Shown: positions 73 to 55,300 of the stretch, in pieces
Layout of the letters: each line of letters starts with the position of its first letter
How positions within the stretch are numbered: position 1 is the first letter of the stretch
Assembly: GCA_951406725.2 (NCBI GenBank)
Contig: OX597815.1
Coordinates: forward strand, 142,352,001-142,416,000
From: Octopus vulgaris
Taxonomy: Eukaryota
Reading direction: 5' to 3'
DNA: 64,000 bases
Program-made: the position numbers and the translations under genes
The notes under the pieces: model-generated
What the model saw: the letters and a program-made list of their open reading frames with translations, nothing else
Database searches by the model: none
What the model was told of the DNA's origin: nothing

Positions 73-1399
73 GTTTCTCATAATAAAGCACACTTCAATA
101 GTTTAGCAGATAGCTAGAAGGGTCTTTAATAGCAAATATAATTTTATATAACGTCATGTAGACTTCCAAATAAAAACTAAACGTCAGTTTTTCATTGCAA
201 ATTCATTTTGATTAGAAATCTTATTTGACATTCCACTCTCCCGAAAGCGCAAAAAGCTACGTAAAACTGAATTTCTAATATGACAGTCTTCGTTTATGAT
301 GCCTGTATTGTTCTTGTGTGTTATGAATATATGCTGTTTCTAGAAGCACTTTTAATATGTATTTCTGTTAATATATAATATGTTTCTCCTCAGTCATCAT
401 ACATAAGTATTATATCAAATTATAAACCTATATACACTGCAACACTCAATAAAATATTACAGACACATAGGAATAATATTGGTGTAGGCATGTGAGAATG
501 ACAGAAAAAGAGAGAAAGAGAGGAAGCAAAATGTGACACACAGAGAGTGGGAAAGAGAAAAGAGAGAGAAAAGAGAAAGAGAAATAAATCAGACAAAGAG
601 ATTTGCACCTCAATGCAAAGTGAGAAGTTCATTCTTTTATATCATGGACGTGTACCGAGTGGCAATCCCGGCCTTGCCAGACATATCGTCCTCTATCATC
701 GGACAGTCTGATGACAACAGGAAAGCCATATTTTCAAACTCACTTTAAACCTTCCCTCCTGAAAATAAATAGATATTTGCACAAGTGAAATGGCCAATAC
801 ATCAGTTCAATTTAAAATAATTTTTATATATAACTTGACATAAAATTACACATTCGTACACACACATTAGATGTGTGTGTATGTGTGAACGCCTGTTATA
901 TTAGATATTAGCGACTTAATCAGGCTTTGTAACGAATATTAAAGTGCACTTTCAACTTAAATTGGATGTGTTTTAGAACACATTAAACTGTAGCAAACAT
1001 CACGGAAGCTCATCTCGTGTAGATGACAAGCGTTAAAAAGCACCGAATACTATATTGGCTGGGAAAATTCTCGTCAACACCAGCAGATAATACTATCGTA
1101 TTGTGTGATTTCATTGTAAATTGCGGATCAACAATAACAGCAATGCAAGCTTCATTAATGCATGTGGAGTTGCTAAATAATATTCGTAACAAAAATTGAT
1201 TCTGTCACAGCTCATTTATAACAGCCCGCCAGCTTTTCGCGTCATCACTAGCTGTGTGGCCAGTATAATATTATATTATTGTATGGCCACATGTTATCAG
1301 TTCGGCTCGTTTTTGATCTCGTATTCGAGGCTTGTCAGTGTGGAAAGAAATTATGTATAAAATTAATATGTAGCTCCCACACATCTGAAGTCCAAAATA

Positions 1400-1960
1400 A
1401 AAAATATTCTTTAGTTCCTGAAGAAATTTACATTGATAAACATTTTTAATTTTGCAATTTCCGTTGAGAACACAAATTTTATTCGGACCACGATTACAAT
1501 ATTACAATTGATTTCATTATTTAAGAAGTGGTTATCATTATTAATGTTATTATTATTATAGTTATTAAGCGAAACCCTTTTACCGTTAAGAATATAGTTA
1601 TGTGAAGAGATAATTTGTTGGAGATTATTAGCGTTAGAAACAACAATTCTGATACGATGTGAGTTGAGAAAAGAGTGGAAACTCGAACTTTTGGAGATGC
1701 TCCTTTCGATGGCTTTACGAAACATTTAATTTGTTTGCTGTATGGAATAACAAAACTAATAGTTTTACTAGGGTCAGGCAATTTTTCGGGAGATTTCTCA
1801 TGAAAAAACCTGGAATTTTTTATCTATGTTTATAGAAGTGGGGAAGTATAATTACCTTCCTTGGACTGCTTATTTTTAAACTTACCAAGATTATGTTTTT
1901 GCATAATTCCATGTAAGGAATTTGATTTAGGTTAATATATTTATGATGAATGTTTTCTTT
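1400..1960 (-). mobile_element. Penelope-like element fragment (RT thumb/linker to start of the Cys-rich region before the GIY-YIG nuclease), frameshifted
   Basis: Minus frames read IPYSKQIK..FRKAIERSISKSSSFHSFLNSHRIRIVVSNANNLQQIISSHN and CNRGPNKICVLNGNCKIKNVY. This matches the PLE motif FLxLIDKHFPxxHxLHKIFNRNTVKxSYSCxxNxxxIISxHN / CNCRxxxCPLxGxC, also seen at 56780-57030. Confidence 0.7.
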
Positions 1961-2147
1961 GTATAATATTCGATTTTGTATGTTATATGTCTCACAGCAT
2001 AGCTTTTGGACGGGTTCTTCATTGGCTGAGTTGTGAAATGGTGGTTCGTCTCTAAATTAATTATATACATATATTATATATTATATATTACAAAAGTCTG
2101 CATTATACTGAATTTTACCTGTAATGTTGGAATAATAATTTATTCCC

Positions 2148-2236
<89 letters not shown>

Positions 2237-2241
<5 letters not shown>

Positions 2242-2382
2242 AGCGTAGCTGTGTGTTGAGAAGTTGAGAAGATTGATTCATAACCACAAGGTTCCGGGTT
2301 CAGTCCCACTGCGTGGCATCTTCAGCAAAGCTTTGTGAGTGGATTTGGAAGCTGGAAAGTGAAAGAAGCCGTCTTATATATG

Positions 2383-2449
<67 letters not shown>

Positions 2450-2680
2450 GTTTGTGTGTATTGGTGAGTGTGTTATTATCCCCACCACCACCATCGCTTG
2501 ACAAAAGATGTTGGTGTGATTACGTCCCTGTAATTTAGCAAAATTAAATTAACCGATAGAAGAAATATAAGGCTTACAAAGAATAAGTCCTGGGTTCGAT
2601 TTGTTCGACTAAGACATCTTAAGGTAGTGCTCCAGCATGGCCGCAGTAAAATGACCGCAACAATTAAAACAATAAAAGAA
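2237..2680 (+). mobile_element. SINE family A (tRNA-headed octopus-type SINE with internal microsatellite), internally deleted copy
   Basis: Head GTAGCTGTGT..GGTTCCGGGTTCAGTCCCACTGCGTGGCA (A/B-box-like), GTGAGTGGATTTGG, (CA)n middle, tail GTGCTCCAGCATGGCCGCAGT..AATAAAAGAA. More than 10 related copies occur in the window. Confidence 0.9.
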
Positions 2681-2799
2681 TGATGTTCCGTGAAGCAAGG
2701 ATCAACAACAGAAGCACTTCATCTGGTAAAGATGTTTTTAATTGTTAATGCTATTCATTATCTTTCTTATCTTTTTCTTGACAATATAATTAAAATTAC

Positions 2800-3020
2800 T
2801 GGTATTGTTAGTAGATATATGTATTACTTTCTACTACTGATGCTAGTACTACCTAGTGTCTTTGTCTCTATACTACCACCATCACTCTTGCCACCACCAT
2901 CACGATTACAAAACCACTACTGTTGCTGCTGCTGCCGCTACCTCGACTGTTATTTCAGAAATAACAACAACTACTACTACTACTACCACAACAACATCTA
3001 CTGCTGCTACTATTGGTATT
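2800..3020. repeat. Degenerate trinucleotide low-complexity tract (CTA/CAC/GCT/ACA)
   Basis: Visible. Explains the poly-H/T/A/C/N/Y ORFs at 2690-3104. Confidence 0.85.
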
Positions 3021-3274
3021 TCTCAAAATGTCCTGTCCGCAGAATCACTCCTTGAATTCAATCACAAGACTGACATAATTTTTGCGAAAAATGGATCGCA
3101 ATGAAGAATTTATAAAGAGAGGAAGAAAGAAGGAATAAATGAAAGATAGCTGATACCAAACATCGATGATAAGTTTGATGCATCTATGAGCACCAAACAA
3201 CAACGCCAGACTGATGCCAATAATCAAAAACATCGACAAAAGACGCATGCATCCCTAGTGATATATACTTTTCT

Positions 3275-3475
3275 TTTAGTTTTCTTTTTACTTATTTCCG
3301 TCATTAGACTGTAGCAATCCTGGAGCACCACCTTGGAGAACTTTTTATTCGAATGAATCCACACCAACACTTATCTTGTAAGCGTGGTACTTATTTTATC
3401 GGCCTTTGGTCAAACCGCTATGTCATGGTGATGTAAACACACCAGTACCGGTGGGGGGACAAATAGAAACTCAAA
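3275..3475 (-). mobile_element. SINE family A, 3' half
   Basis: Reverse complement of the family A tail (CTGGAGCACCACCTT, GTAAACACACCAG, GGGGGACAAA). Confidence 0.85.
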
Positions 3476-3527
3476 TACACACACACACACACACACATAC
3501 ACACACACACACACAGAGATATATATA

Positions 3528-3736
3528 TTTACCTGTCTCAGTCATTTGACTGCAGTCACGCCGGAGCACCACCTTTAGTGGAACAAATCGATCCCAGAAA
3601 TTAGTATTTGTAAGCCTAGTACTTATTATAAAGGGTTTTTTGCCGAACCACAAAGTTACGGGGACTTGAAGACACCAACATCAGTTGTCAATCGATGGTG
3701 GGGAGGACAAACAGACCGCAAACATATATACGCACG

Positions 3737-3813
<77 letters not shown>

Positions 3814-5075
3814 TCCGTTTACCAAATCTACTCAGCACTTGAACGGCTCGAGGCTATAGTAAAAAAACTCTTGTCCAAGGTGACGTGCGATGGGACTGAA
3901 CCCGGAACCATGTGGTTGGGAAGCAAGCTTCTTTATTTCATGATATTGGCTATTACAGCCTTATATGTAGGGGACAGTACAAGGTGGAGACAAAAAAAAA
4001 ACGAATGGGAAGTATAAATTAAATATAATGAAAGATGAAATGAAACCGTTCGGCCCAATCTCCAAGCGATTTCATTGAACTTTTTAATACAACCTGTTAT
4101 TGTAACTTTTTTTTAAAAAACACTAGTTTATAATACCATTTTTAGCGACAGCTAATTTCCATCCGGCCGAAGGATGTTTATATTGCATTTCTTTAACATA
4201 TCAAAACAGCTTACTCGTTCCAGCATCATACTGGTGTCCATTTTCCTGACCCACCACCCAAAGTTAAAGTTTTCCTCATAGTCCTTCAATCTGAAATGGT
4301 ACAATCTGAAATGGTACACAGCAAACGTTCTCGGCACCCCTTCACTCCTGTTACATCCACCATTATCACTCTGTCCCTCGAATCTATCTCATTCTGAAGT
4401 TCTTCCTTTATTCCATTGTAGAGTATGACATATTTTTCATTTCCGAACGAGAGTGGGGAACTTTGGGGCTCCTGTGTGCTTGTGTTCGTCTTCATGTCAG
4501 GTGGGGTATGGCGAAGGCTAGTTTCTGCAGGTGTAGATTAGGTGTGGGTGGGTTTTGGGTGTGTGTGTGTGGGAGGTCGTCATTTACAACGTGTGACATT
4601 TTCCTCTTTCTTTTTTTTTCCCAGGTGTTTCCCATCCATTATTCACCCCCTCCTCCTCGACGCTGGCACTGGTCGTTGTCTGTGGTGCAGTTTCAATCTC
4701 CTTCCCCCTCTTGTACTTCTCTTCAGCCTCCACGGGTAGCGGAGGATTTCTCTTTTAAGTATTTTCTTGAATTTGCTTAATTCTTCCAGACTCACGTCTT
4801 GACTATTTTCTTTTGCCTCTTCAGCATAATTTATCGTCTCCATGGCCTCGTAAATTCTTTTTAGACTTTTCACCAATTCTTCCTCGGACGATATAAAGTC
4901 TCAAGAAGAACTCAAAACTTCGTAATTCATAACGCTCCTACGGTGCTCTCCAATTAAACAAGAGGGAATACGCCGCACACCACCGCTGCAAGACAGCCAA
5001 AAACACGCATTTCACACAAAGGCAACCGTCCAAACAATCGGAAGCAAGCTTCTTACCACACAGCCACGCCAGCGT
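3528..5075 (-). mobile_element. SINE family A copy split by an insertion in its tRNA head (SINE parts 3528-3933 and 5040-5075)
   Basis: GGAACCATGTGGTTGGGAAGCAAGCTTCTT stops at 3933 and resumes as GGAAGCAAGCTTCTTACCACACAGCCACGCC at 5040. Confidence 0.92.
3934..5039 (-). mobile_element. 1.1-kb RT-less retroelement with decayed ORF1-like coding remnants, inserted in a SINE A head
   Basis: Perfect 15-bp TSD GGAAGCAAGCTTCTT (3919-3933, 5040-5054). Minus ORF pieces 4643-4876, 4286-4495 and 4152-4337. PLSFGNEKYVILYNGIKEELQNEIDSRDRVIMVD resembles the ORF in the 20978-23043 element. Confidence 0.85.
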
Positions 5076-5084
5076 CTACGATAT

Positions 5085-5225
5085 TTTCGGGAATATTCAG
5101 ATGTAGCTGAATTTTTTTGCACTTTTGAGCAACGGTCGGGTTTTCTGTTTTCCTGAATGGCTAACTTATGACTTCCACGCTGCATTCACTTCAGTTTCAG
5201 CACACGATCTCCGATCAAAATACTT
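5085..5225 (+). repeat. Unclassified interspersed repeat, second copy at about 20630-20780
   Basis: Shared CTTCCACGCTGCA..GTTTCAGCACACGATCTC(C/A)GATCAAA in both places. Confidence 0.75.
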
Positions 5226-5699
5226 AATGTGTGTGTATGTGTGTATTTGTGTGCGTGCGTGTGTGTGTGTGTGTCTGTGTGCGCGCGCGATTGCGTGCGT
5301 GTCTGTGTGCGTGTGAACACTTTCATTAGTAGTAGAAGTATGAGAATACAATCGTAGAGAAAAGAAATCTAGTTTATATGACAGCACTCCGTACATTGAA
5401 TAGTAATGCCAGGAATATGTGTAATTCTAGAGGTTTCAGTCAAGAAAGCAGAATAAACTTGTGTGTCTTGCAATATTCATGAACTAGAAGAACAAATATC
5501 TTCCTTGGTGATAAATAGTCATTCGTCATACATTATTTATTGTCATTCTTAATTAGATACTTCCAAATACGCATATGTACACACGCATACACACGTACAT
5601 ACATTCATACATACGTGTGTGTATGTGTCTGTGTATATGTGTGCACGTGTGTGTCTGCGTGAACAAATGTGCATAACGTGTCCGCGCTTTAGATAGTAA

Positions 5700-6172
5700 A
5701 GTCTTACCTTGTATTACCAAAAGTTACTGGGAGTTCAATATAAAACCTTGGATAAATGTCTTCTACTACAACCTCGGGTTGACCGAAGTATTGTGAGTGG
5801 TTTTGGTAGGCGGAAATTGAAAGAAGCCCGTCGGATATGTATAATTCTATTTCTTATGTTACGTCCGTCCGTTAGTCGATATATCTTTTCTTTTTGATAT
5901 TCCCTTGTGTTTGTATATGTACATTCGTTTGCCTTGCTCAAGGGCTAAATGCCTTCAGCTTCAGCCCTTGGCTAAACTGGCGTTGAGTAGTATCGGAGAG
6001 GATTGGGTGAAACTACGTAGATATTCCAAACTCCGACTGAAGAAGCAATTGCCTGCGAATGTTCTGCGTATCTTATTTTGTCCTGTTTGCTGTTGTTCTG
6101 CTATCGATCTTTTCTCTTGTTATGTTTTAAAGATTTCCGTTTGTTGTGTTTTTACCACACACACACACACAC

Positions 6173-6241
<69 letters not shown>

Positions 6242-6475
6242 CAGGCACACAAATATCAAACATCTACGTCTGTATTTGTGTCTGTGTCCGTTCACCCCTA
6301 TCAGTATTGGTGTGTTTACATCCCATAAGATAACGGTTCGGCAAAATCGAACTATAGAATAAGTGCTACGCTTAAGAAATACGTCCTGGGATCAATTTGT
6401 TCGACTAAAACCCTTCACAGCGGTGTTCCAGCATGACCGCAGCCGAATGACTGAAATAACTAAAATAATAAAAAT
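5700..6475 (+). mobile_element. SINE family A copy (head 5700-5845, tail 6265-6475) with about 300 bp of another repeat inside its microsatellite middle
   Basis: TTGTGAGTGGTTTTGGTAGGCGGAAATTGAAAGAAGCCCGTCG, then tail CGGTGTTCCAGCATGACCGCAG. Confidence 0.8.
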
Positions 6476-7020
6476 GTACTAACAATACTAGTAATTATGA
6501 TGTCGTCAACAATATAGGAAAAGTAATATAAATAACATTTAATAAAATGTAGACGTAAGACGTAGTACCTTACAGGTTATATAAAAAGTATCTTAAAAGA
6601 TATGTAAAATATATGGGAACTGTAACAGCCTAGATTGAACTTATTGTCAGACGTTGAAATTATATATCTGGAACATTGTATTGTATTGGTTTACAACAAA
6701 GGACAGAAAATCAAGGAAGAAATGGAAGGTTTAGCATTTACTAAATGGCTTCCTGTATTACACAGAATTAAGAACAAAATCTTACCAAGCGTAGCTGTGT
6801 GGTAAGAAGCTTGATTCCCAACCATATGATTCCGGGTCCACCTTGGCAATTAGTTTCTACTATAGCTTCGGGCCGACCAAATCCTTGAGAGTTGATTTAG
6901 TAGACAGAAACTGAAAGACGCCCTCGAGTGACCCGTCTGTTTTTTTGTGTCGTCTCTTTGTGTGTTTTTGCGTTCTTTGTAATTTATATTTTATATTTAA
7001 TTTCTATACATACGTACACG

Positions 7021-7060
<40 letters not shown>

Positions 7061-7193
7061 AATGAGGTAATCAGCACACATATGTATATATATATATATA
7101 TATATATTAGAAAAAATGAGGTAATCAGATCAGATGGTTCATATTTGTAGATATTTATTTATATATTACATTTTTTACATATATATCATATCA

Positions 7194-7240
7194 TTCGGAT
7201 TAGCGCTTTCTCCCAATCTAGTGGGCTTTTCAAATCAAAT
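7194..7240 (-). ncRNA. Decayed Penelope-type minimal hammerhead ribozyme
   Basis: Minus: GAT-TTGAAAA-GCCCA-CTAGAT-TGGGA-GAAA-GCGC-TA|ATC. Topology and palindromic stem III fit, but the core CUGANGA is mutated. Confidence 0.5.
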
Positions 7241-7339
7241 AGATTGTGGGGAGTTTGAACATTTTATAGTTTCGTAGTAGTGGGTGAGGAGGAAGTGAGA
7301 CAGAGAAAACATGTGTGTATGTGTATGTGTGTGTGTGTG

Positions 7340-7391
<52 letters not shown>

Positions 7392-7394
7392 TTT

Positions 7395-7556
7395 ATATCT
7401 GAGAGTGAAGAAGTGTTATTTCCTTTGGTCAACTGGACCTCCTGTGGTTTTATAAGAACTTTGGCCATCCATTTTGATGTCACTGAGTGTGTTGTGCGTA
7501 GGTTGGCCTGACAAATGTCATTTGGGGTCACAGTTTCTATGATCATTCTGTGGAGG
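7395..7556 (-). mobile_element. Possible Penelope GIY-YIG C-terminal remnant
   Basis: Minus translation HLSGQPTHNTLSDIKMDG..QRK*HFFTLRY loosely resembles the PLE end motif HFNxPGHSLSDI..RKxxExFFI. It lies just upstream of the decayed hammerhead. Confidence 0.3.
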
Positions 7557-7580
7557 TGTGTGTGTGTGTGTCTCTGTGTG

Positions 7581-7624
<44 letters not shown>

Positions 7625-7700
7625 TGTGTGTTTGGAGAAGGGGAGAGAGACAAAAAGAGAAAAGGGAAAATAAAAATAATAATAATAAAAATATATAATA

Positions 7701-7753
<53 letters not shown>

Positions 7754-7799
7754 CATACACATACACATACACATATACATACAAACATAATAAATAATA

Positions 7800-7838
<39 letters not shown>

Positions 7839-8092
7839 CACATACACATACACATATACATACAAACATGTGTGTGTGTGCGTGTGTGTGTGAGTTTTCC
7901 CCACCATCGCTTGATAATCGGTCTGGTGTGTTTACGTCCCCATAACATGGAGGTTCCACAATTCTGTCACCTCGCCGCCTAGTGATAGCAAGATTTATTC
8001 TTATATTCTTTTATTCTTTTACTTGTTTCCGTCATTTGACTGCGGACATGCTGGAACACCGCCTTTAGTCGAAAACATCGACCACAGGACTA

Positions 8093-8181
8093 ATTCTTTG
8101 TAAGCCTTGTACTTATTCTAAAGGAGTTCTTTCGCTGAACTAAAGAACCCCTTTAGAATAAGTACAAGGCTTACAAAGAAT
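8093..8181. repeat. Hairpin, 40-bp arms with 1 mismatch and 9-nt loop, made of SINE A tail
   Basis: ATTCTTTGTAAGCCTTGTACTTATTCTAAAGGAGTTCTTT / AAAGAACCCCTTTAGAATAAGTACAAGGCTTACAAAGAAT. Confidence 0.95.
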
Positions 8182-8188
8182 ATATATG

Positions 8189-8258
<70 letters not shown>

Positions 8259-8333
8259 AATTAAAATGGAAGACAAGAGATGGAACGAACCGATGAATCG
8301 AAAACGAACCCGACGCGAGGCGCTGTCAGACAA

Positions 8334-8754
8334 TAATGTAATAATTAAAATATATGCATACATACAAACATATATGTACGTACCTACATGTATATATACA
8401 TGCATATATAAATAAATATACGTGAGTACAGGACACCACAACAGGACGTAGAAACGGGAAAAACATAAAATTATAACAAGAAAATAAGGAAAAGTCCCCG
8501 GTCATCAGCTGTCGCTAGTTAGACTCAAGCGTGTTTCGAAGAGCCTTCGAAACACGCTTGAGTCTAACTAGCGACAGCTGATGACCGGGGACTTTTCCTT
8601 ATTTTCTTGTTATAATTTTATGTTTTTCCCGTTTCTACGTCCTGTTGTGGTGTCCTGTACTCACGTATATTTATTTATATATGCATGTATATATACATGT
8701 AGATGTAGGTACATATATATATGTTTGTATGTATGCATATGTTTTAATTATTAC

Positions 8755-8758
<4 letters not shown>
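8334..8758. repeat. Long palindrome, arms about 210 bp, 3-nt spacer AGC (8542-8544)
   Basis: 8384-8541 is the exact reverse complement of 8545-8702. The outer about 50 bp is imperfect. Confidence 0.95.
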
Positions 8759-8803
<45 letters not shown>

Positions 8804-8830
8804 CTGTAAGTATGTATATATGTATGTATA

Positions 8831-9048
8831 TGATGGGGGTGCTGAACATTTCTCGCTGTAAGTATACGGCAAAAGACCTGGTTGAAGGCCCAAACTTCCG
8901 AATTCTGTAACAGGGCTTAGGAAAACTGAACGACTGCTGCAATAAGTGTGTGAATCTGAAAGGGGGACTCGTTGAATAAAATCGTAACTAATTGATCGTC
9001 CACATTTTCGTTTACCCACGCCTAATAACTTTTCTGCACTCCCTCATG
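8831..9048 (+). mobile_element. Mariner-derived MITE (internal deletion derivative)
   Basis: Imperfect TIRs GATGGGGGTGCTGAA / TTTCTGCACTCCCTCAT in TA context. The interior encodes a transposase C-terminus, GLGKLNDCCNKCVNLKGGLVE* (compare GIxxLxxRWxKCIxxxGDYVEK). Confidence 0.7.
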
Positions 9049-9059
9049 TATATCTATCA

Positions 9060-9139
<80 letters not shown>

Positions 9140-12100
9140 CTAGATGTGTGTGTGTGTGCACGCGCGCATGTGTGTGTGTGTGCACGCGCGCATGTGTGTG
9201 TGTGTAAGCATACAGTAAGTTACTGCCACTTATGTTGTAGGCTTAATTCAAATATTCTCAGTGCTGTTATAACCACAATTTCTTTGTAAACTTATTGACT
9301 CACTTATTCAGTATCGTTACATTTAAAATGTTATTTTTCTAGCCAAACTTGCATTAATCCACGGACACCAACTAAATCGGTGTAATTTAGAAGAATTATA
9401 TTGACGCAATGATTCTCTCTTCATCGTACACACAGACCAGCATAGAAATAAAATATCCAGTGAAGAAAATATTATCATTGAAAATATCTTTAACATGGAA
9501 TATTTTGCGTCATTTTAATTTCTGAGTGTCTTAGATAGAGAGATCTTCTAGAAAGTTGTTTTACTTTTTAGTAAGTAGCGATATCGGTAAGTATGTGAAT
9601 CAACATCTCGAACTGAGATTTAAAATTGCAATTTGTCTCGTATCTTTCTCATTCCCAAGTTGGTTCCCGTATTCATGATTTGTTATTTCTAAAGATTATT
9701 TTCATTGTATCTCTTGAATAACTGAACCATTATTGTAATATCATTACAATGATCGTGAAGGTTTTGTTTATACATCGTTTCAAATCTCACTGCCAACGCA
9801 AATATTTAAGATAAAATAAACAAATCGATATATTTTAATATCATATCCATTTTTTTCTTTTTTACTTTACAGTAGAATATGTGTACATGATTTACTGTAG
9901 AATGTATTTTTACAAAAAATTACACACACACAGGTATGTGTATTCTTGGTAGTAACTGTGTTAAACTATATTCAATACCACTTTCTATTATAATACTGCT
10001 AGATTGCTGAGCTAGAAATTCCTTCGGAAAAGAATACTTATCTTGCGCTAACAAATATTGGCTTCTAGGTTCTAATTTTACGTGTCAGTATATTCCTTGT
10101 CATTGGTAAAGAATATTTTGTAACGATATTCACTGTTTGTAATATAGTTTCGAAATTAATTTATAAATTTCTTGTAGTTAAAAAATTTAAGTACTTATAA
10201 ATTTCATATACTTTTATAAACTTAAATGTGTTACATGGTAATTAGAAAGATTATAGTATATTTCATGCATTTGTGCATAAATGAAATAACTAACGGTAGA
10301 GCGCTAAGTTGAGCAAACGTTTCTGAATTTAGATTTTGCACAAGCGCAGCTTATAATTTTGATACTCGGTGAGAATAAGTGTACAAAATGGTCGCTGAGT
10401 TTCGAAAATTCTAGGCTACGCCTGCATAATATCTAAATTTAGAAAACATTGCAGCACATCTCAATGACTGCTCGAAGAAAACTTGTTGAGGCAGCTGCCT
10501 TGAAATGTTTTCTAACATTTATAGTTGAATATACTTTTCCAAGTGCTCCCTAGAGCATCCTTCTCTCTCTTTTTATCTCTCCCATTTTCTTCCTCTCCTT
10601 ATCTATGTATGTCGCTTTTCTCTCTCTCTCTCATCTAGCAACTAGATAACGAAGATGATTTCGTTAAAGTGATATATCATATCATGCGAAGAAGCATTCT
10701 TATGGCAGTCTTTCAGTACATATCGAGTAATAGCACTCAAACACTAGATAACAAGTAGTTCTGACTTTTCAAACTTTCTGATCCATTTGTTGCTATTCTG
10801 TGGAGAAACAAAACCTGTGAAGTGTACTCTCCTAATAAATCTTCTTATACATTCATTTCTGCATTACAGTGGTTGGCACCAGCATCCCGTATTTTGCGAC
10901 ATTTACTTATGTGACTCGTGAAACTGTTCCTCAGATTTCTTCAATCTGTATAGATCGTGGATATTAGTGCTGCTTTAAGGCATGTTTATAGAAAGGTGTC
11001 GTCGATGTTAGCTTTGTATCTATTATGCTTATTCATATGTAACTAATTTCAAGAAGATATTTAAAACCTCAAGCTTACCTGATGCCAGTCTATGAGTTAA
11101 ATATTCCTAGGTATGCATTTACTGATATTTTTTTAATTTCTTTGTCTTTCACATAGAGCTGGACCGATTCTCTTCTGTCACTATGTAGACTTTACTTTTC
11201 AGTATGCGGCATTGTTTTCTAAAGATTTTTTTTTTCCGCTTAAAAACAATAAATATTTTTCAGGTTCTTTTGTTTCTCTTTATATATTGGTGTTACCAGC
11301 TGCTATTCGTAGATTCTTTTAGTGCCGTTTCCCATCTATATATATATATATATATTGAATTAATAATTACCTGTGACATATTAATCCTATACTCTCCTAC
11401 ATCACTTTATCACTAAGTGCATCCATACAGGGAGATTTACTTTCTTTCTTTATTTATCATTTCTTTTTCTTTCTTGTATTATTTTTACCACCATAATATG
11501 AAAATCGGAAAATTTCAGGCATTGATTTCTTAAGTATGAATTAAATATGAACGTATGGTTCAAAAAGATTTTAAAAATACGTTTTGATGTTTATGTGTTA
11601 TTGTTGTTATTTTGTTATTCGCATTGCGTGTTTTTTCTCCATGGACTACTTTGAAATATTTGTGACTATTAGGGTCAGGGTTAGGGTTCCTTAAAATTAA
11701 CCTCCTTAAAGTTAACATTTTGTATTTCAACTGGTGTCTTTAGTGGTTTATTTAGGTCTTTGTATTGTTCCACATACATACGATCTTTTTTCATAATTTA
11801 TGCCTTTCCTTATATAATATATCTATTGTTGATGCTTCTCTTATCACTTCCCGTGGAGCTTTCAAACTGACGATGTCTTGGGTATAGCTTACATGAGAGA
11901 ATGTATATTTCACTACGCGTATTGCGCAGAAAAACGAATGATAATTTTGCTGTGAGTGTTTGGTATAATGCGTGTATTATATAAGAGTGAGATGAAACCA
12001 ACTTAAATATAATTGATAATGAAGTAGTAATGAAATACAAGAGAGAAAGGCGACACTAATGTAAAAATCTCAAAGATCGTCATTTAGAAAATATTTTCAC

Positions 12101-17319: not shown

Positions 17320-17682
17320 CTCTCTTTCTCTTTCTCTTTTACTTGTTTGTCATTTGACTGCGGCCATGCTGGAGCACCGCCTTTTGTCGAGCAAATCGAC
17401 TCCGGGACTTATTCTTTGTAAGTCCAGTACTTATTCTATCGTACTCTTTTGCCAAACCGCTAAGTGATGGGGACGTAAACACACCAGCGTCAGTTGTCAA
17501 GCAATGCTAGGGGGACAAACACAGACACACAAACATATACACACACATACGTATATATATACATATATACGACAGGCTTCTTTCAGTTTCCGTCTAGCAA
17601 AGACACTTGCCCAAGATGCCACACAGTGGGACTGAACCCAGAACCATGTGGTTGGTAAGCAAGCTACTTACCACACAGCCAA
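17320..17682 (-). mobile_element. SINE family A, young copy with internal deletion and an EMPTY target site
   Basis: Uninterrupted GGTTGGTAAGCAAGCTACTTACCACACAGCC at 17650-17680. Confidence 0.92.
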
Positions 17683-17833
17683 ACCTGGTGGTGGTTTCAA
17701 TACTTTTGTTAATAAAAAAATATATCACTGAATCCTGTGTTCTTGATAACATTCTTTTTTCACACCAAACTCCAAATTGATGAAAATTCCCTTTAGTATT
17801 TAGGACTGCATCTATACGTACTGCTGTGCTTAC

Positions 17834-18390: not shown

Positions 18391-19648
18391 TTGGGTTGGT
18401 AAGGTAGTAATTTCGTTTTTCGAAAATAGATAGATTTAAGATTTTTTTGAATGACTTTTCTTAATGTTATATATTTTTCCTTTTGACATTTGATAGCCGT
18501 TACTTTTAGCTTACTTTAGAAGCAAATTGCGCGTAATTTTGTGTACAGCTGATAGTTCAGTGTCAGTTTTAACATGGAGTGCAAAAACTAACATTTTCGC
18601 CATATTTTAATTTTTTATATTTCCGTAAATGTAAGAAAGCTGCTGAAGCTCCCAAAGAGATATGTGAGGTTTATGGTGATAATTGCTTAATAGAACGCAC
18701 AAGTAAAAATGTTTTAAAATTCCATTCTGCAAATTGTGCATTCAAAGATGATCAAAGTTCTAGTCAACCTACTGAAGCTGATGATGTCCAAATGAAAGCC
18801 ATAATTGAATCTGATTGTCATATAACTGTGCGAAAGATTGCAGAGAAATTAAATGTTTCACATATAACAATTGAAAATCACTTAAAATGTTATGGTCCCC
18901 TTACGAAGCTCGATATTTGTGTTCCACTTCAATTGAAAGAGTTTCACGTGACACAACGAATCACTATATTGCGATATGCATCGCAAACGCAATGATATCG
19001 ACCATTTTCTGAAAGGAATTACCACTGGTGTTGAAAAATGGATTGTCTACAATAACATCAATAGAAAACCATCATGGTCCAAGCGTAATGAACCAGCACA
19101 AGCTCCAGCGAAAGCTGAATTGCATAAAAAAAAGTTATGCTATAAATTTGGGGAGGGGGGATTACGAAGATGTTTTGTATTTTGAACTGCTTCCAACGGC
19201 CCAAAAGATCTATTCAGATGTTTGCTTCCAACAACTAACGAAATTGAAGGAAGCAATCAAGTAAAAACAGTCAGAATTGGCAAATCGTCAAGGAATCGTG
19301 TTCCACTATGACAACGCAACGCTAGACCACACACGTCTTTGCTTACTCGTGAAAAAATTATTTGAGCTAAGTTGGGAGGTGAGTTACCCGCACCATATAG
19401 CCCTAATCTTGGACCTTCAGATTACCATTTATTTCGAAGTTCTTTGCAAGGTAAAACCTTCAATAATGATAACGACCTGAAATCGCACTTGCTTTAGTTT
19501 TGGGCTGATTAGGATCAGAATCATGAAGTTGCCGGGAAAATGGCAAAAAATCATCGAAGAAAATGGAATATTTATAATTGATTTAAGATCATTCTTTGTA
19601 CGAAAAAATATGACTTATTTCAAACTAATTACTTTCTTGCCAACTCAA
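18391..19648 (+). mobile_element. Full-length mariner (DD34D, Hsmar1/cecropia-like TIR), transposase pseudogene at about 18574-19585
   Basis: TA-flanked TIRs TTGGGTTGGTAAGGTAGTAATT / AATTACTTTCTTGCCAACTCAA. Motifs ITVRKIAEKLNVSH (HTH), ICVPLQL (WVPHEL), ITTGVEKWIVYNN, HYDNA, YSPNLGPSDYHLFRS. Several frameshifts. Confidence 0.95.
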
Positions 19649-19884: not shown

Positions 19885-22800
19885 GCTCTTTTACATGTTT
19901 CAGCCATTTGACTGCGACCATGCTGGAGCACCGCCTTTAGTCGAGCAAACCCACCCCAGGACTTATTCTTTGTAAGCCTAGTACTTAGTATATCGGTTTC
20001 TTTTGCCGAACCACTAAGTTACGCGGACGCAAACACACCACCATCGGTTGTCAAGCGATGTTGGGGGGACAACCACGCACACACATGCATACGAGCATGG
20101 ATACATACATACGCACATGCGTACGTATGTACATACACACATACATACACACATACATACATACATACATACATACATACATACATACATACATACATAC
20201 ATACGCACATACATACATACATACGCACAATAGTAAAACAATAGAGATAAAGATCTGATAATAGATTTTAGGGTATAGTTTCGGGAGTAAGCATCGTAAA
20301 TCACTTTCTAGCTTCGGCCGTAGGAAGTTGAAATTTGATAGCTTTGTGATGAGTGGTCACTCTACATCCATCCATCGCTACAGGTTTATAGATTTATGTT
20401 TTATAGAGTGTGTGTGCGTGCATATACACACACATACATATATACATACATACATACATACATACATACATACATACATGCATACACAGGCGTATGTACG
20501 TACATGCATACGTACATACATACACACATGTATGCATACATACACACATACATACGTACATATATATGACGAACTAACTGTTACTTTCTTAGATGCAGCA
20601 CGGACTTTGTCAGTGAACAGGTCGCGGATTTTAGCGACGAAAATATTTTGACAAATTAAACTTAAATGTTGAAGTGAATCGAACGGCTTTTGTGTGTTTC
20701 TTAAATGGCTTATAAACACCTTCCACGCTGCAATTGTTTTCGTTTCAGCACACGATCTCAGATCAAATTACTTGCTATGCGAGTACATCTCCGTAATATA
20801 TATATGTATATATATATATATATATACATATATACGACGGGCGTCTTTCAGTTTTCGACTACCAAATCCACTCACAAGTTTTTGGTCGGCCTGAGGCTAT
20901 AGTAGAAGACACTTGCCCAAGTTTTCACGCAGTGGGAATGAACCCAGGACACCATGTGGTTGGTAAGCAAGCTACTTTATTTCATTTTATTTGCCATAGA
21001 GGCAGTATACAGCGTAGCTGCGGGCTGGACAAGAGATTAATGAGGAAAATGATAATAATACAAGATGATAAAGTTGAGAGAAAGAGCCCGCCAATTTCCT
21101 GCTTCTCTAAAACATTGTTCGTTACAAACAACATATATAGAGGTATTAAACCTCATACAAATATATACAAAAAGTGGGACTAGAAGTCCATCACAAAGGA
21201 AACAAATTTTATACATATGGAGGCGATAATCCTCTTACATTACTCCCACAATTAACTCTTCTGTGGCCTGCAGGTATTCCCGCAACCACCAATCGGAGCC
21301 AAAGTAAAGTAATCTGTATTCCTCCTTTGGGAAGGATGTTGACCTGTAGAAAAATATTTTCTTTCCAGTACCAGTGCTGCCACCTGCGAAGGCCACTCTG
21401 GAATGTCAATAAAAATGGTGTCCATCAGAACCCAACTATCAAGGTTATATTCCACATATTCCTCAATCGCACCTCCCTTGCAATAGAGGAATACAAATTC
21501 CTCATCACTTTCAATGAGAGGGAACTCAACTACCTCGCTCAGTGGCACACATTCCATCGACAAGGTTTCCTTCTTCTCCCCGCTCGGTGCCACACATCCC
21601 ACCGAAGGGAATTCGGGACATGCCGTCGCCGGCAATGTCCCGTTTTCCATTTTCTTCTTTCTTTTCCCCTTTGTGACGGAAGGGTGGAGTTCCTCCGACA
21701 TGTCTGGAGGTCCCTCCTCCCCTCCCGCCATCTCAGGGTCCATCGGTGGGCAATCATTTATGTCCGCCTTCCTTCGCTTAGTACCTTTTCTCGAGGAGGT
21801 TACTTCCTCCTCGACTTTCTCACTCTCTCCCTCAAATGAAGGAGCAAGAGGCTCCGTTGAGGGAACAGTGGGTTAACAGTCATCAATCAACTGTTCCAGG
21901 ACCTTCACCTGGTCTCGGCAACAGTTCTTCTTCATGTGCCCTGATTCCAGGCACAGGTGATACTTGGGGGTAGGGGGTCTCTCAATGATCACCGGGTGCC
22001 TAGAATCGTCAATTGTCAAGAAATCTGGTCAAACCAGATCTTCGGCCGATTGGACCCATGGGGTCAAAATAGCTTTTGACCCTACCCGATCGACCACAGG
22101 CAGTATTTTTACATTCAAGAGCCTGGTGGGGCCTCGACAGATAGAAGCTTCTATCCATTCAGCTACAATAGCGGGTGGCAGCCCACACACCCAGGCTCTT
22201 GTCAATTTACGCACACCATAAGTGGGGAGGAACAAGATCTTCCTCCCCTCTATAGGTTGGCTCGTAAATTTCTGAGCCTCCATAGGGGTGTGCACCCCTA
22301 CGTATGAACCTATAAGTTGGCTCAAATCCTGCCAACTCTTCTTCAATTTCACTCTGAGGGAATACACAGATGGTATCCCGGTCTCTCATCATAGTTTTTC
22401 TCATTATAGTTTTTAGCCACTCCTTGCGGGCCACAATTCACCACTCCAAGGCTTTCATATATTTGGTTGCCATTAATAGAATAAACTATAAAAGTTCACA
22501 ACAAAATAAAAAATGTTCAAATAAAAGTCTCTAATGCAAACACAAAAAAGAGCAGAAAGACAGTCAAGAGAAAAAGAACGAACGCAGGCAGTTCAAATGA
22601 CAACAAAAGTCAACTCAGGGAATCGTTTGTAGCACAGTTAAAAATCCCTTACGGCGCAAAAATAACTGCAAAAAATTCCTGATTATACACCAAATGGTAA
22701 AATACTCCAAATGGTAAAATTCTGGTTGTATTCCAATTGGTAAAAATGTACGAAGTGCACACAGTCACATAAAATCATATATCTTCAGAGGGGATACGCC

Positions 22801-23080
22801 CCCTGAAAAACCAAAATTCTCTCAACACAGTGAGTCTTTTTGCACGATCACAGGCAGGCGAATAACCCAATGGAGACCTTTGCTCGTCAAAAGTTATTAA
22901 TTACGAACCAACGGACTCCACTAAGCTCCTTAAAAGAAAAAATAAACGCCTTACCTGTAGTCGTGCTTCAGTTTTTCAATATTTTTACGTAGAACGACGT
23001 GACTTTGGAGCGTCTAAACACGCGAACTCTTCAGTTGTGAAGAAAGCAAGCTACTTACCACACAGTCACTCCCGCGCCTA
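19885..23080 (-). mobile_element. SINE family A copy (tail 19885-20075, mid/head 20835-20977, 5' end 23044-23080) split by an insertion in its tRNA head
   Basis: ACCATGTGGTTGGTAAGCAAGCTACTT ends at 20977 and resumes as AAGCAAGCTACTTACCACACAGTCACTCCCGCGCC at 23044. Confidence 0.88.
20978..23043 (-). mobile_element. 2.07-kb RT-less retroelement with a disrupted ORF1/gag-like gene (about 22470-21200), inserted in a SINE A head
   Basis: Perfect 13-bp TSD AAGCAAGCTACTT (20965-20977, 23044-23056). RKLTRAWVCGLPPAIVAEWI (RRM-like), PVIIERPPTPKYHLCLESGHMKKNC (degenerate CCHC knuckle, about 21915-21995), basic KGKRKKK, then a C-terminal domain. No RT or endonuclease motifs. Confidence 0.88.
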
Positions 23081-24939
23081 TGTAAATTAATGTCTTTAGA
23101 ACATGTGCTGGACGCCTTAAACACAAATGGAATTTATGTGGCCGCCTTGCCTCTGTAAACTGTAAATTGTAGTCAATATGAAATTATCCACCAAGAAAAT
23201 TTCTCTCAAGATTTTCATTCATTATTTATCGATGAAAATTTTGAAATACATATTTCTGAAAATGGTATTCTGCATTATTTATGCGAGAAAATATTGATAT
23301 GAACATGTTTCTCAGTGTTTTAAATAACTAAAATGACTATTGTCCAATATAGCTATTGTAGTACAAACACTTTTCTACATAAACGTATAAAAACGTTCTG
23401 AATATGTCTTAGTGGTACATACGTTAATTGTTTTATGTCTAAATATCCCTACGGTCTGCGCCGTCGAAGTCCCGCTAATGTTTCTAACGGTTACTATAAC
23501 GGTTAGAGCTATGAAGCTGCAGGCTGTTGTCGGAAGTGTCACAGCGAAGATAATATGGATTTCTGATTTAGACACATCCAGCAGTAACAATGGGAGGGTG
23601 CAACCAATGTCATGGACTCAAATATTTGATTGTTATTTCATATCATGAACCCCGAAAGGAGCAGAAGTAAAAATAACTTAATCATGTCTTGAACTCACAA
23701 CATGTGAGACGTAACTACGAGTGTAAAGCTTCTGCTCCAATGTAAATTATTAATATTAAGTAGAAACAGTAATTAAGACGTGAACGAAACCAGAAACACA
23801 CTTCAGTTGACGGAATTTAAATCGAGAGAGACGTCACACAAAGGAATGCATTGTGTTAGTAATTTTTGTGAATTACATTTGAGTTCCTAATGTATCAAGA
23901 GATGTCATATACTTGTCAACAGTTCCTCAGTTGAGATAGAACAATTTCTAAATAAGTTGCAGCTTCTCTTCTTCTGCCTATAAAACTGTGAACATTACTA
24001 TAACTATCACTTTTGAATTGATTCTGTTGAAATAACTACAAATTTTATTTCATTGATTTATCTTGCTTTAAAATGTATATCAGCAACATAATGTTATACT
24101 TGTAATAATATTATTCGATTCCCTTTGAAACGTAATTATTTATATATCTTATCTGGGCGAGAAAACTATGAGAATAATAGTAAGTTTAGTGTTTGTGAGC
24201 GTTAAAATATTAAAAGATGTTTCTGATCATTGGGTTACATTACACATTGGAAAATATACTAAACCATAATCGATCTTGAGACTAGCAATATAAAGTCGGC
24301 GCTTGTGGGAGTCGATGAATATTTTATGGAAATATATCATAGTGATATATTATATTACAAATATTATTAAGCATTTTATTTATATTTTCTACTTTTTCCT
24401 CAACAAACCAGGGAATAACAACATATAACACCCCGGCATCAATAATTTAATTGCAGCAAGTTTCTAATACTGTAGTTTGACGTCAGCTTCCTCACTGGAA
24501 AGGAGCAACGTATTTGTCTATCGATAGTTGCATAGTTAATATATATATAGTTGAATACATGTAGTTTATTCATGTTTTACATTCATCAATGTCTACAGAC
24601 AATCCAGGAAATTGTCAAAGGAATTATTCAAAAACCAATTTAAATATGATTTCCTATGAATGTGTGCCTTTCATACATGAACTCCGTCCATTTCCATATT
24701 ATTATGAAGCATTCAGCATTACTTACCTAACCCAAATATAATACTCATATATGGGAGTTGTAAAATTTAATCACATTCCCAAGTCTAAAATAACAATAAA
24801 CACTATTAAATTTGAATTCTTTCCATATTTACACATTGAAATGAAAAATACGAATTTATCGACTATACAATTAGAATTCAAATAACATGAACAGAAAACC
24901 ACTTTAAACATGTTTCAGTTCATTGATATGTAGATATGA

Positions 24940-29257: not shown

Positions 29258-30590
29258 CAGCGAGCAAGAAAAGAGAGCGATAATTATTATTTCGCAATTG
29301 GTTTTGTAAATACGGTTAACCATTTTGTAAAATCTACTTTTGTGCAATTATCTTAATAAGGATTAATAACACTAATACAAGTCTTGTCCAAATGTCTCAT
29401 GTCAAAAATAAGTAAACGATCAAACTAGAAATTGCTTCAATTAACTCATTACCGTAATAATGATAGGAAGAAATGTAAATATGAACTTAAATCAGTTAGT
29501 ATGATGTTCGTAGAGCTCTGTTGGAGATCACCTCTGCACATTGATTGCCACAGGATATAACAGGTTTCCTGCACATATCAGTTGTTATTTTCTTCTATTC
29601 CTCTTCTAATATCTCCCTAAAAATCACCATAGCAGTTGGTGCCCTTTCTCTTGCTTTGTTTCGAAATATCTTCCAAAGCTTTTCAATCAGATTTGTACTA
29701 GACACATCATTACTTAAAAATGCACGGTTGATTCGGAAGTGCTCGTAATGATGGGGTCACATTTTGTTTCATCAAATTCAAATAAATATTAGCATTAATA
29801 GTCTCTTTAATCTGCACTAGAGGACCAACTCCTTCAGAAGAAATCATTTCCTACAACATGACGCTTCCTTCTCTAAACTTGGCAGATTTCTTCAGGCACT
29901 TGGATTTTACCCAACCCCCTATGAAGCGCCTAACATACTGTCTATCATCTGAACCTACTAAATTGAATTTGATTTCATTGCTAAAATGAACTTTTGACCA
30001 ATTTCCATCCCTCCAGTTCACATGAGCTTCTGCAAATGAAAGTCTTTCCAATTTGTTCTTCTTGCTTATGGAAAGTTTCATTGCCGGGGAACAAATCTTT
30101 AATGCAAATTCCTTCAGACGACGAGACATAGTAAAGCGGCTCATTTCCGTACCATTATTTACTTTAATTTTCTTAGGAATTCTAGCCGCACTCACGAAAG
30201 GATCCATCAATACGTATCGCTTCATGGCTCGATCATTTCGCATGTTGGTTTTGCTTGGTCCTCCAATCGCCTTTTTCGGTTCAAAACCTTTACTTTCTTC
30301 ATAGAGCTTAAGAACACGTGAAACTACAATCTTATAACTCCTTATGTCTCGTGAAATAGCCGACAGAGTCATTCGTGAAACTTTCATCCTAACAATTTCT
30401 TTTCGGAGGTCGGGAGTAGACTTGGCGTGAAGTGTCATGTTCGGAAGTTAGCACAATACTGAGACGGTTGTAACGGTGAGATTGCAAATGTAAACAGCGT
30501 TTGAAATTTCCAGAAATTTCTGAAGGATTCTAATCTTTCTCATCTTTTTCACATGATTTGGACGAAAGTAGCTTTTTTTGTCCGCTACTG
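29258..30590 (-). mobile_element. Tc1-like (DD34E) transposon, degenerate; transposase remnant 30438 to about 29500
   Basis: ORF 29851-30438: paired-type HTH, GGPSKT (GRPRKT), WSKVHFSNEIKFNLVGSDDRQYVRR. Downstream NLIEKLWK (NPIENLW) and QCAEVISNR. TA-flanked TIR CAGTAGCGGACAAAA at 30590. The left end at 29258 is tentative. Confidence 0.9.
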
Positions 30591-53739: not shown

Positions 53740-55300
53740 TTTTACCTTTTACTTGTTACAGTCAACGGAATGCTACAATACTGGGGCACCGTCTTGGAGG
53801 GATTATGGATCTTAGTTCATAGATTTTAAAGGCTGATAATTATAATAACGAATACCTGTATTACAGAGACAGACTGGTTGTCAAGTGGCAGTGGGGAACA
53901 GACGCAAGAGAGACAGACCGACACACACACCACATACACACACACACACAGACACATATGCACTTATATATTGGGTTACCCATAAATAATGCGTTTTTAA
54001 TACTTCTTTTATTTTTCACAATTAAGATAAGCAAATTTGTTTCTGAATCTAAAATATAATTTCCTCCAATGTTTACAATGCTCTTCCACCTATCTGGTAT
54101 AGTTGCAAGGCTCCTTTTCCAAAATTCAATTGTCCGTGATGAAAAGTACTCCTCCAGTACTGTTTTTACCGCGTGTAGAGAGTTCATATTTTCCGTCCAA
54201 ATGATAATCAGATGGGGCAATGTCTGGCGAATATGATGGGTGGGCCATCGTTTCTCGCTCAAACTGATCCAGTCTTTGGAATATCATCCTCGATGAATGT
54301 GGCCGGCCATTTTCCTGATCTAAGAACACAATTTCGTCTTGAAAACAAAGATGGTCGTTTTCCTTCGAACGCCGATTTAAGCCGCTCTAGCTGCTCGTTG
54401 TAGATCTCCTTTGTTATCGTTTGGTTTGTGTTTAAAAATTCAAAGTAGACAAAACCTTTCATATCCCACCCAACAGATAACACCTTACGTGGGTGAAGAA
54501 ATTCTTTAGCCTGCGGTAAAGTTGTCTCACTTTTCAACACCCACTGTCTTTGGCACTGGAAATTTTGTATAGAGGGCCCATCCTCACCACCCACTATTCG
54601 GTGCAAAAAAAGATTCGTTCGTGAGACTGACATGAAAGAAGAGCACAGATTCACTTTCTGTGCGTGATTAGACTCGAAAATAGCGTGAAGAATAATTTGA
54701 TCCACTTCTCCGATGTGACGTAAGTGTCAATGAACGGTTGAAAGACCAAATCCATACTTCTCTGCTAGTCCTGAACAATTACGTTGGGATTTTATTCCAC
54801 TAGGATTTGCAGGACGTCCTCGTCGAACTCTGCAAATGTTCCAGGACGAGGCTCATCCAGGATGTAGTTTCCGGCTTGGAATTTCCGGAATCATCGTTGA
54901 AACTGGTTTACGCGTATTGTGCGATCATCACATACTGCATTAACATTCAACACACTTTCTGTTTCGTTGTAGCCTTTCTTGAATTCATAAAGCAAAATAT
55001 GCCGGATATGCTACAAATATATCATGTAAGTCTACCTCCGGTATAGGAGTACTATTTCCACATTATGTTTCACATTATGTGCTTACTTTTATATATATAT
55101 ATACGTATGTGGGTGTGAATGCCCCACTCCGTGTATGTGTGTGTGCGTGCGTGTAAGATATAATTTCCTCAGTTTTCGTCTAGCAAATTTTCACACATGA
55201 AATTGATCAGCCTGCGACTATAATAGAAAAAGATCAACCCAAAGTGTTGTGCAGCGGTACTGAACCTCAAACCACATGGTTATAAATCGAACTTCTTAAG
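53740..55300 (-). mobile_element. SINE family A (tail 53740-53925, head 55165-55300) hosting a mariner in its microsatellite middle
   Basis: Tail CTGGGGCACCGTCTTG..GGTTGTCAAG. Head CAGTTTTCGTCTAGCAAA..ACTGAACCTCAAACCACATGGTT. Confidence 0.7.
53971..55070 (-). mobile_element. Mariner (DD34D) transposon, degenerate; only the 3' TIR is recognisable
   Basis: TA + TTGGGTTACCCATAAATAATGCGTTTTT. HPRKVLSVGWDMKGFVYFEFL, YNEQLERLK, QENGRPH, HPSYSPDIAPSDYHL, PDRWKSIVNIGGNYILD. Confidence 0.93.

Follow-up and report, generated by a model that had tools for sequence, protein, structure and literature searches.

Is an octopus retroelement that keeps its 5′ end and an ORF1, with no ORF2 behind it, the ruin of an ordinary two-ORF LINE, or does it belong to a family that spreads in this reduced form? 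The question is raised by an insert in a stretch of 64,000 nucleotides of the Octopus vulgaris genome (hereafter the window), for which the first-pass annotation had proposed a HAL1/HeT-A-like bipartite system, with an ORF1-only element borrowing ORF2 in trans. Three lineages of ORF1-present non-autonomous LINEs - HAL1, HeT-A of the Jockey clade and Ag-Sponge of the CR1 clade - are named in the portion of PMC5786205 that concerns them. We read the insert as a decayed full-length copy of an octopus ORF1-only non-autonomous LINE family, probably derived from a Tx1/L1-type element, and put the probability of this reading at roughly 0.7.

Anatomy of the insert

The insert comprises 2,066 bp of the minus strand (20978-23043) and is flanked in the window sequence by a perfect 13-bp direct repeat, which we take as a target-site duplication (TSD), lying at 23044-23056 on its 5′ side and at 20965-20977 on its 3′ side; from the geometry of target-primed reverse transcription, the last bases of the latter would correspond to a TT/A-type nick site. 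Apparently 5′-complete, the element opens with a leader of 570 nt (22474-23043), which may hold an internal promoter, followed by ORF1 as a single broken frame from an ATG at 22473 to about 21255. The remaining 275 nt or so between the end of the ORF and the TSD form the 3′ UTR (20978-21251), with an AATAAA at 20986-20991, 14 nt from the 3′ end of the element, and an A-rich terminus that has no poly(A) run and thus no true poly(A) tail. The leader of about 570 nt, the one disrupted gag-like frame and the missing APE and RT of the first-pass annotation all hold, as does its 3′ UTR with TSD, given there as about 250 nt. Since no Pfam family matched below E 0.17 in any of the six frames of the element, no remnant of APE or RT was detected. 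Neither terminal direct nor terminal inverted repeats were found, which rules out the LTR-type and DNA-transposon readings of the insert. Within the element Rfam returned no family at its gathering score, and RNA structure was not significant at either end (z -1.0 to +0.9).

One further property of the leader deserves mention. Between 22480 and 22955 on the minus strand it carries a strong splice-donor-like site (22955/22954) and, in a T-rich tract just before the ATG, AG dinucleotides near 22533 and 22489; this stretch could possibly be a 5′-UTR intron retained in the inserted copy, going by sequence signals whose acceptor sites were picked by eye.

A type I ORF1 and its one close relative

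The sole close relative found for the ORF1 protein is P0001, a protein of 281 aa from O. sinensis (LOC115225585), which is an annotated gene with three accessions for one protein. It is 56% identical over 216 columns, and its N-terminus matches the first frame of the window's ORF1. A search with P0001 returned 47 proteins at E<=0.001, P0001 included; an octopod name stands on 11 of the 20 relatives that were looked up, and the named protein relatives come from Octopus and Argonauta.

The structure of P0001, modelled with AlphaFold on a 46-row alignment (mean pLDDT 81), resembles two-RRM proteins (Foldseek E 3.6e-5), with predicted RRMs at about residues 14-102 (VIA-align Z 8.9, rmsd 2.7, 82 residues aligned) and 103-186 (Z 8.0, rmsd 2.7, 75 aligned); both Z values lie near the level that VIA-align rates as common, in a match list dominated by RRMs. 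Transferred to the window, all on the minus strand, the RRM1 region spans 22212-22473 and is damaged by a stop at 22438-22440, a 15-bp tandem duplication at 22384-22413 and a frameshift with deletion near 22300. The RRM2 region (21974-22211), in which 51 of 80 aligned residues are identical to P0001, holds a second stop at 22029-22031. There follow a single degenerate zinc knuckle (21921-21962) and an acidic/basic low-complexity linker (21541-21920) with the third internal stop (21873-21875), within which P0001 ends, near 21654. P0001 has no counterpart of the C-terminal coding part (21252-21540), which is in frame with ORF1 and unassigned; a frameshift near 21341-21350 may have displaced its true end. 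The window's frame stays open for some 130 codons past the end of P0001. The RRM-like region described in the first-pass annotation is thus refined to two tandem RRMs, as predicted on the homologue. Its CCHC knuckle is indeed present in a degenerate form, the first Cys being Tyr in the window copy and Phe in P0001; a zf-CCHC match at E<=0.1 occurs in 15 of the 46 relatives.

Judged on this modelled fold, the window's ORF1 is of type I, with two RRMs and a knuckle, the order of domains by which PMC4120745 defines the type in its treatment of ORF1s. Type I ORF1 has been linked to the Tx1 clade in non-mammalian animals (PMC5203782, in the passage on this clade). Since it also occurs in I, Jockey, R1, Tad1, L2 and CR1 elements (PMC4120745), and since the octopus element, in contrast to Tx1-clade LINEs, has no RT, we infer its placement in Tx1 from ORF1 type, TSD and target behaviour, no autonomous partner having been found. 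Atlas neighbours of P0001 at 0.89-0.93 carry zf-CCHC together with ZCCHC3 RNA-binding families, those at 0.89-0.90 having the ZCCHC3 domains PF23057 and PF23058 with zf-CCHC; in contrast to such proteins, the element has no Pfam sequence match to PF23057 or PF23058, and it is a repeat rather than a single-copy host gene.

Neither APE nor RT was present in any of the 22 ORF1 relatives scanned, one of which is a chimera with an integrase. This is P0015, an O. sinensis gene model with an ORF1-family N-terminus (64% over 45 aa) followed by the integrase, and probably a chimeric prediction spanning nested elements. The protein searches yielded no intact full-length ORF of the element's family, whether among proteins of near length (P0001 alone recovered), in the P0001-based search or among shorter proteins (none). 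Likewise, the 46-row alignment had no match among proteins of 1,403-4,005 aa, in what is a weak search, and no relative was recovered when metagenomes were scanned with P0051 and P0001.

Five distant ORF1s (P0002, P0017, P0020, P0031 and P0042) have in common a C-terminal domain, some 90 aa long, that corresponds to no Pfam family; leave-one-out searches recovered it in all five (E 2e-5 to 6e-10), P0036 was unmatched, and the predicted model of the domain reached a pLDDT of 58. The C-terminal part of the window's ORF1 looks similar to this domain by eye. Such a relationship was rejected as unsupported: the best score, allowing a trial frameshift, was 0.5 bits, whereas 40 random stretches scored as high as 7.7 bits, the hhalign probability was 0.1, and the best Atlas value was 0.77. 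Separately, Logan contigs bearing distant ORF1 relatives (P0005, P0006, P0019 and P0041, with cluster members) have lengths of 1.7-1.9 kb without exception, which hints weakly at additional ORF1-only families.

These data also bear on a quite different origin, in which the inserts would be processed retrocopies of one host gene, itself domesticated from a LINE ORF1 and copied from its mRNA. L1TD1 is a host gene of such descent, and the AATAAA at the end of the insert, its full-length 5′ end and the annotation of P0001 as an O. sinensis gene would suit this origin. However, P0001 is just 56% identical and lacks the C-terminal part, there is no poly(A) run, the protein searches recovered no intact parent protein, and the leader retains splice-donor- and acceptor-like signals that a copy of spliced mRNA should have lost. 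We consider such retrocopies very improbable, and retain the ORF1-only LINE family as our reading.

Diverged copies share the ORF2-less arrangement

Neither the element nor its ORF1 recurs within the window, and evidence for a family comes from public DNA runs, 12 of the 24 listed containing part of the element. RNA runs were absent from the listing of those that contain it, which says nothing about its expression. Four runs, one from each of organisms A-D, were aligned to 20940-23085 at 80% likeness, and all 30 bins were covered in all four. In X1, summed depth within the element is mostly 1,000-10,000 and that of single pieces 28-89, which suggests tens of copies, summed depth not being a copy number. 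Depth is roughly level over the leader, ORF1 and the C-terminal part, and rises about 2-10-fold across the last 180 nt, where a shared tail, 5′-truncated copies or low-complexity matches may contribute.

Contig pieces allow the arrangement itself to be followed. Among the 32 pieces listed, of 36,184 in all, 27 are 10.0-18.0% diverged from the window copy and represent other copies, and the other five, differing by 0.5-3.2%, seem to represent this very locus in organisms B, C and D. Together, the 27 diverged pieces bridge every position from 20982 to 22180 colinearly and free of large insertions, each position being flanked by 31 letters or more to either side; this tiling combines different copies, no listed contig spanning a whole second copy. 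The end of the ORF at 21252 is bridged by six listed pieces, or about three to four distinct copies, whilst a single diverged piece supports each of 21440-21460 and 21612-21680; the stretches 22181-22505 and 22690-22894 are covered in depth, with no bridging piece among the diverged ones listed. With a protein of ORF1p type, no ORF2 and, from these tiled pieces, a multi-copy ORF2-less family, the element has the makeup of an ORF1-present non-autonomous LINE.

The window copy is itself dead. Two of its stops are private: at 22030 another letter makes up 85 of 94 or more of the contig depth in all four runs, and at 22440 it makes up 275 of 332 or more. Of the variable places listed in the ORF, 19 of 25 were classed, the exceptions being five within the duplication, all from a single contig, and one where the frame is uncertain; 14 change a residue whereas five are silent, the neutral decay pattern of a dead copy. 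Other copies have private internal deletions of their own, for instance 21391-21880, and this, with the decay of the window copy, could be taken to favour a single loss of ORF2 after insertion, the case that the first-pass annotation had named as its own refutation. That case fails, because the ORF2-less junction over 20982-22180 is common to the diverged copies (27 of the 32 listed pieces), in four organisms, and we give a one-off deletion practically no weight.

A subtler alternative is that a two-ORF LINE gave rise to an internally deleted derivative, which was briefly amplified with its ORF1 as unselected cargo, or that a majority of two-ORF copies was missed. Indeed, the contrast in identity between P0001 and the window's ORF1 is slight (56-66% in the domains, 51% in the linker), records of the SINE flank fill the loose ends listed (24 of 1,161) and could hide exits into ORF2, and the higher depth of the final 180 nt could reflect a tail in common with an autonomous LINE. 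On the other side stand the even depth across leader, ORF1 and C-terminal part, the frame that remains open well beyond the end of P0001, and the existence of a second, 56%-identical relative; we judge this alternative improbable and continue with an ORF1-only family.

Insertion into the head of a SINE-like repeat

A SINE-like repeat of very high abundance is interrupted in its head by the insert, both flanks being halves of one repeat; this context is absent from the first-pass annotation. Its 5′ part, with an A-box-like motif, lies at 23057-23082 (loose ends at 23079-23083), and its 3′ part, with a B-box-like motif, the body and an (AT)n tail, at 20796-20964, both on the minus strand. An uninterrupted site is present in an intact copy of the repeat at 17651-17677, and related stretches occur elsewhere in the window. 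The box-like motifs, matched by eye to what we take to be the consensus, and the (AT)n tail are the reason that the interrupted repeat is read here, from sequence features, as a putative tRNA-derived SINE; an Rfam search of the intact copy (17450-17760) gave no tRNA match. The element lies between the two box-like motifs, in the same orientation as the SINE, at a TT/A junction.

Several other copies appear to occupy the same site. On the 5′ side, two pieces that are 12-13% diverged cross into the same flank (X1 record 8, to 23069, and X6 record 24, to 23082), and probably represent one paralogue in two organisms; on the 3′ side, a 12% diverged piece does so (X4 record 9, to 20951). Moreover, joints lead from positions 21695, 21120, 21004 and 20986 in the interior of the element to 23044-23046, the start of the TSD. 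Given that 15 of 73 joints and 12 of 64 further rows were listed, there are at least four such truncation joints, as would be expected from 5′-truncated insertions at the same site; the shorter side measures 21-27 letters in three of the four and is not given for the fourth, and repeats can yield joints of this kind. With the 13-bp TSD and the lack of terminal repeats, these short-sided joints are marks of target-primed insertion. Assuming 1e5-1e6 SINEs in 2.7 Gb, chance would place 0.002-0.02 insertions per 100 copies at this nucleotide.

We think it rather probable that the family targets this SINE site, a preference in the style of Tx1. The section of PMC4494074 on target preference applies a criterion of over 20% of copies in one target, and describes a test in which the breakpoints of truncated copies separate hitchhiking from independent insertion. 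Alternatively, the family could be ORF1-only without any target preference, the same-site copies stemming from one duplicated segment of SINE plus insert or from misjoined repeat contigs. The joint sides are short, all three flank-joined pieces are possibly one paralogue, and artefact joints are plausible because the SINE flank is extremely abundant (summed depth of 0.1-7 million in the flank bins). Nevertheless, four distinct internal breakpoints meet at 23044-23046, which duplication of one insert would not produce, and we hold an untargeted family to be unlikely, if the most credible of the alternatives. Among the joints listed, that of 21004 to 23046, which links the last 27 nt of the element to the SINE site, occurs at about six times single-copy depth in X4 and X7 but is absent from the joints listed for the other two runs, and is perhaps a SINE subfamily with a tiny insert.

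Comparison with known systems

By analogy, the targeted ORF1-only family that we favour would work like HAL1, HeT-A and Ag-Sponge. HAL1 (half-L1) of mammals is the nearest in build, being non-autonomous, encoding ORF1p only (PMC5753468 and PMC5786205, where they treat it), retaining both the 5′ and the 3′ end and existing in multiple copies. However, HAL1 stems from the L1 of mammals, the ORF1 of which belongs to type II, built of coiled coil, RRM and CTD (PMC4120745), whereas the octopus element has a type I ORF1 and no poly(A) run, and is apparently targeted. PF02994 (Transposase_22) has no match in the element or in the 46 relatives; in place of a HAL1-type protein there are tandem RRMs and a knuckle.

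HeT-A and Ag-Sponge are similar as ORF1-only LINEs that need an autonomous partner; type I is likewise the ORF1 type of Jockey (PMC4120745, in its survey of ORF1 types), and HeT-A is targeted too. There are differences as well: the targets of HeT-A are the ends of chromosomes, and three knuckles are found in the ORF1s of Jockey elements (PMC4120745), in contrast to the one degenerate knuckle, the TSD and the internal SINE site of the octopus element, a solitary TSD-flanked copy rather than part of a telomeric head-to-tail array. The proposal of a HAL1/HeT-A-like system stands as regards a multi-copy, ORF2-less family, and stops short of membership of either HAL1 or HeT-A.

In its insertion at a single site of an abundant repeat, the octopus element is reminiscent of Tx1-clade LINEs. 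The targets set out in PMC4494074 include Tx1D for Tx1L, Mariner-N4 for Tx1-Mar and U2 for Keno, with Kibi and Koshi as further examples, and comprise DNA transposons, LTR elements, snRNA and 5S genes, satellites and microsatellites; no SINE head is given there as a target. SINEU-3 demonstrates that a non-autonomous element can share the target of its partner (PMC4494074), although SINEU, unlike the octopus element, encodes no protein.

An octopus family with a type I ORF1 would add an independent origin, in a mollusc, to the three lineages named above. Both ingredients, ORF1-only LINEs and the targeting of repeats, are already known separately. In the literature searched we found neither an octopus ORF1-only LINE nor a LINE targeted to a SINE head; Repbase and Dfam lay outside this search, and a library entry may exist. 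The available portions of PMC9115989, PMC11203168 and PMC4758252 do not describe the octopus element.

A possible mechanism and a putative partner

How might such an element spread? Transcription, nicking and priming are general steps of target-primed reverse transcription, and we posit that a master copy is transcribed from its leader to a transcript ending at the AATAAA, and that ORF1p, with its two RRMs and knuckle, would coat its own RNA. An autonomous LINE would then provide endonuclease and RT in trans; the first nick would fall at TT/A within the SINE head, reverse transcription could be primed at the A-rich terminus, and the TSD would result from a second nick at a distance of 13 nt. 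The borrowed endonuclease may prefer one SINE site that is both harmless and present in very many copies, a step for which the joints described above provide part of the evidence. That ORF2 is borrowed in trans follows, presumably, from the ORF1-only anatomy. ORF1 proteins of such elements have been proposed to multimerise with the proteins of their partner (PMC5786205, in its discussion of them).

An autonomous partner was found neither in the 64-kb window, nor in the protein search (1,403-4,005 aa), nor in the metagenome scans. Candidates nonetheless exist, since O. vulgaris has 80 L1-Tx1 consensus families, of which 13 were recently active, by the counts given in the relevant part of PMC13282606. 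If the shared site is real, the target sequence itself would identify the partner, because the autonomous LINE should occupy the same SINE position, and two processes would become testable on assemblies: selection on an ORF1 after the loss of ORF2, and the specialisation of a LINE endonuclease on a SINE head. We could go further and speculate that this half-LINE is a parasite of a Tx1-type LINE, that it takes another non-autonomous retroposon, the most abundant SINE of octopus, as its target, entering it at a single nucleotide between the promoter boxes and thereby breaking its promoter, and that the distant octopod ORF1 relatives may represent an ORF1-only radiation; we offer this fuller picture tentatively, with its chances a little under even.

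Other features of the window

The window is microsatellite-rich animal DNA. Just to the left of the interrupted SINE lie dispersed repeats (20000-20230 and 20590-20790), namely an element with an (ATAC)n tail and a stretch that is matched near 5137-5225. Remnants of Mariner and Tc1-type transposases are found at 18573-18995 on the plus strand and at 54259-54726 and 29851-30447 on the minus strand, with Pfam matches to HTH_48 (E 6e-6), Transposase_1 (E 8e-18) and HTH_Tnp_Tc3_2 (E 7e-14).
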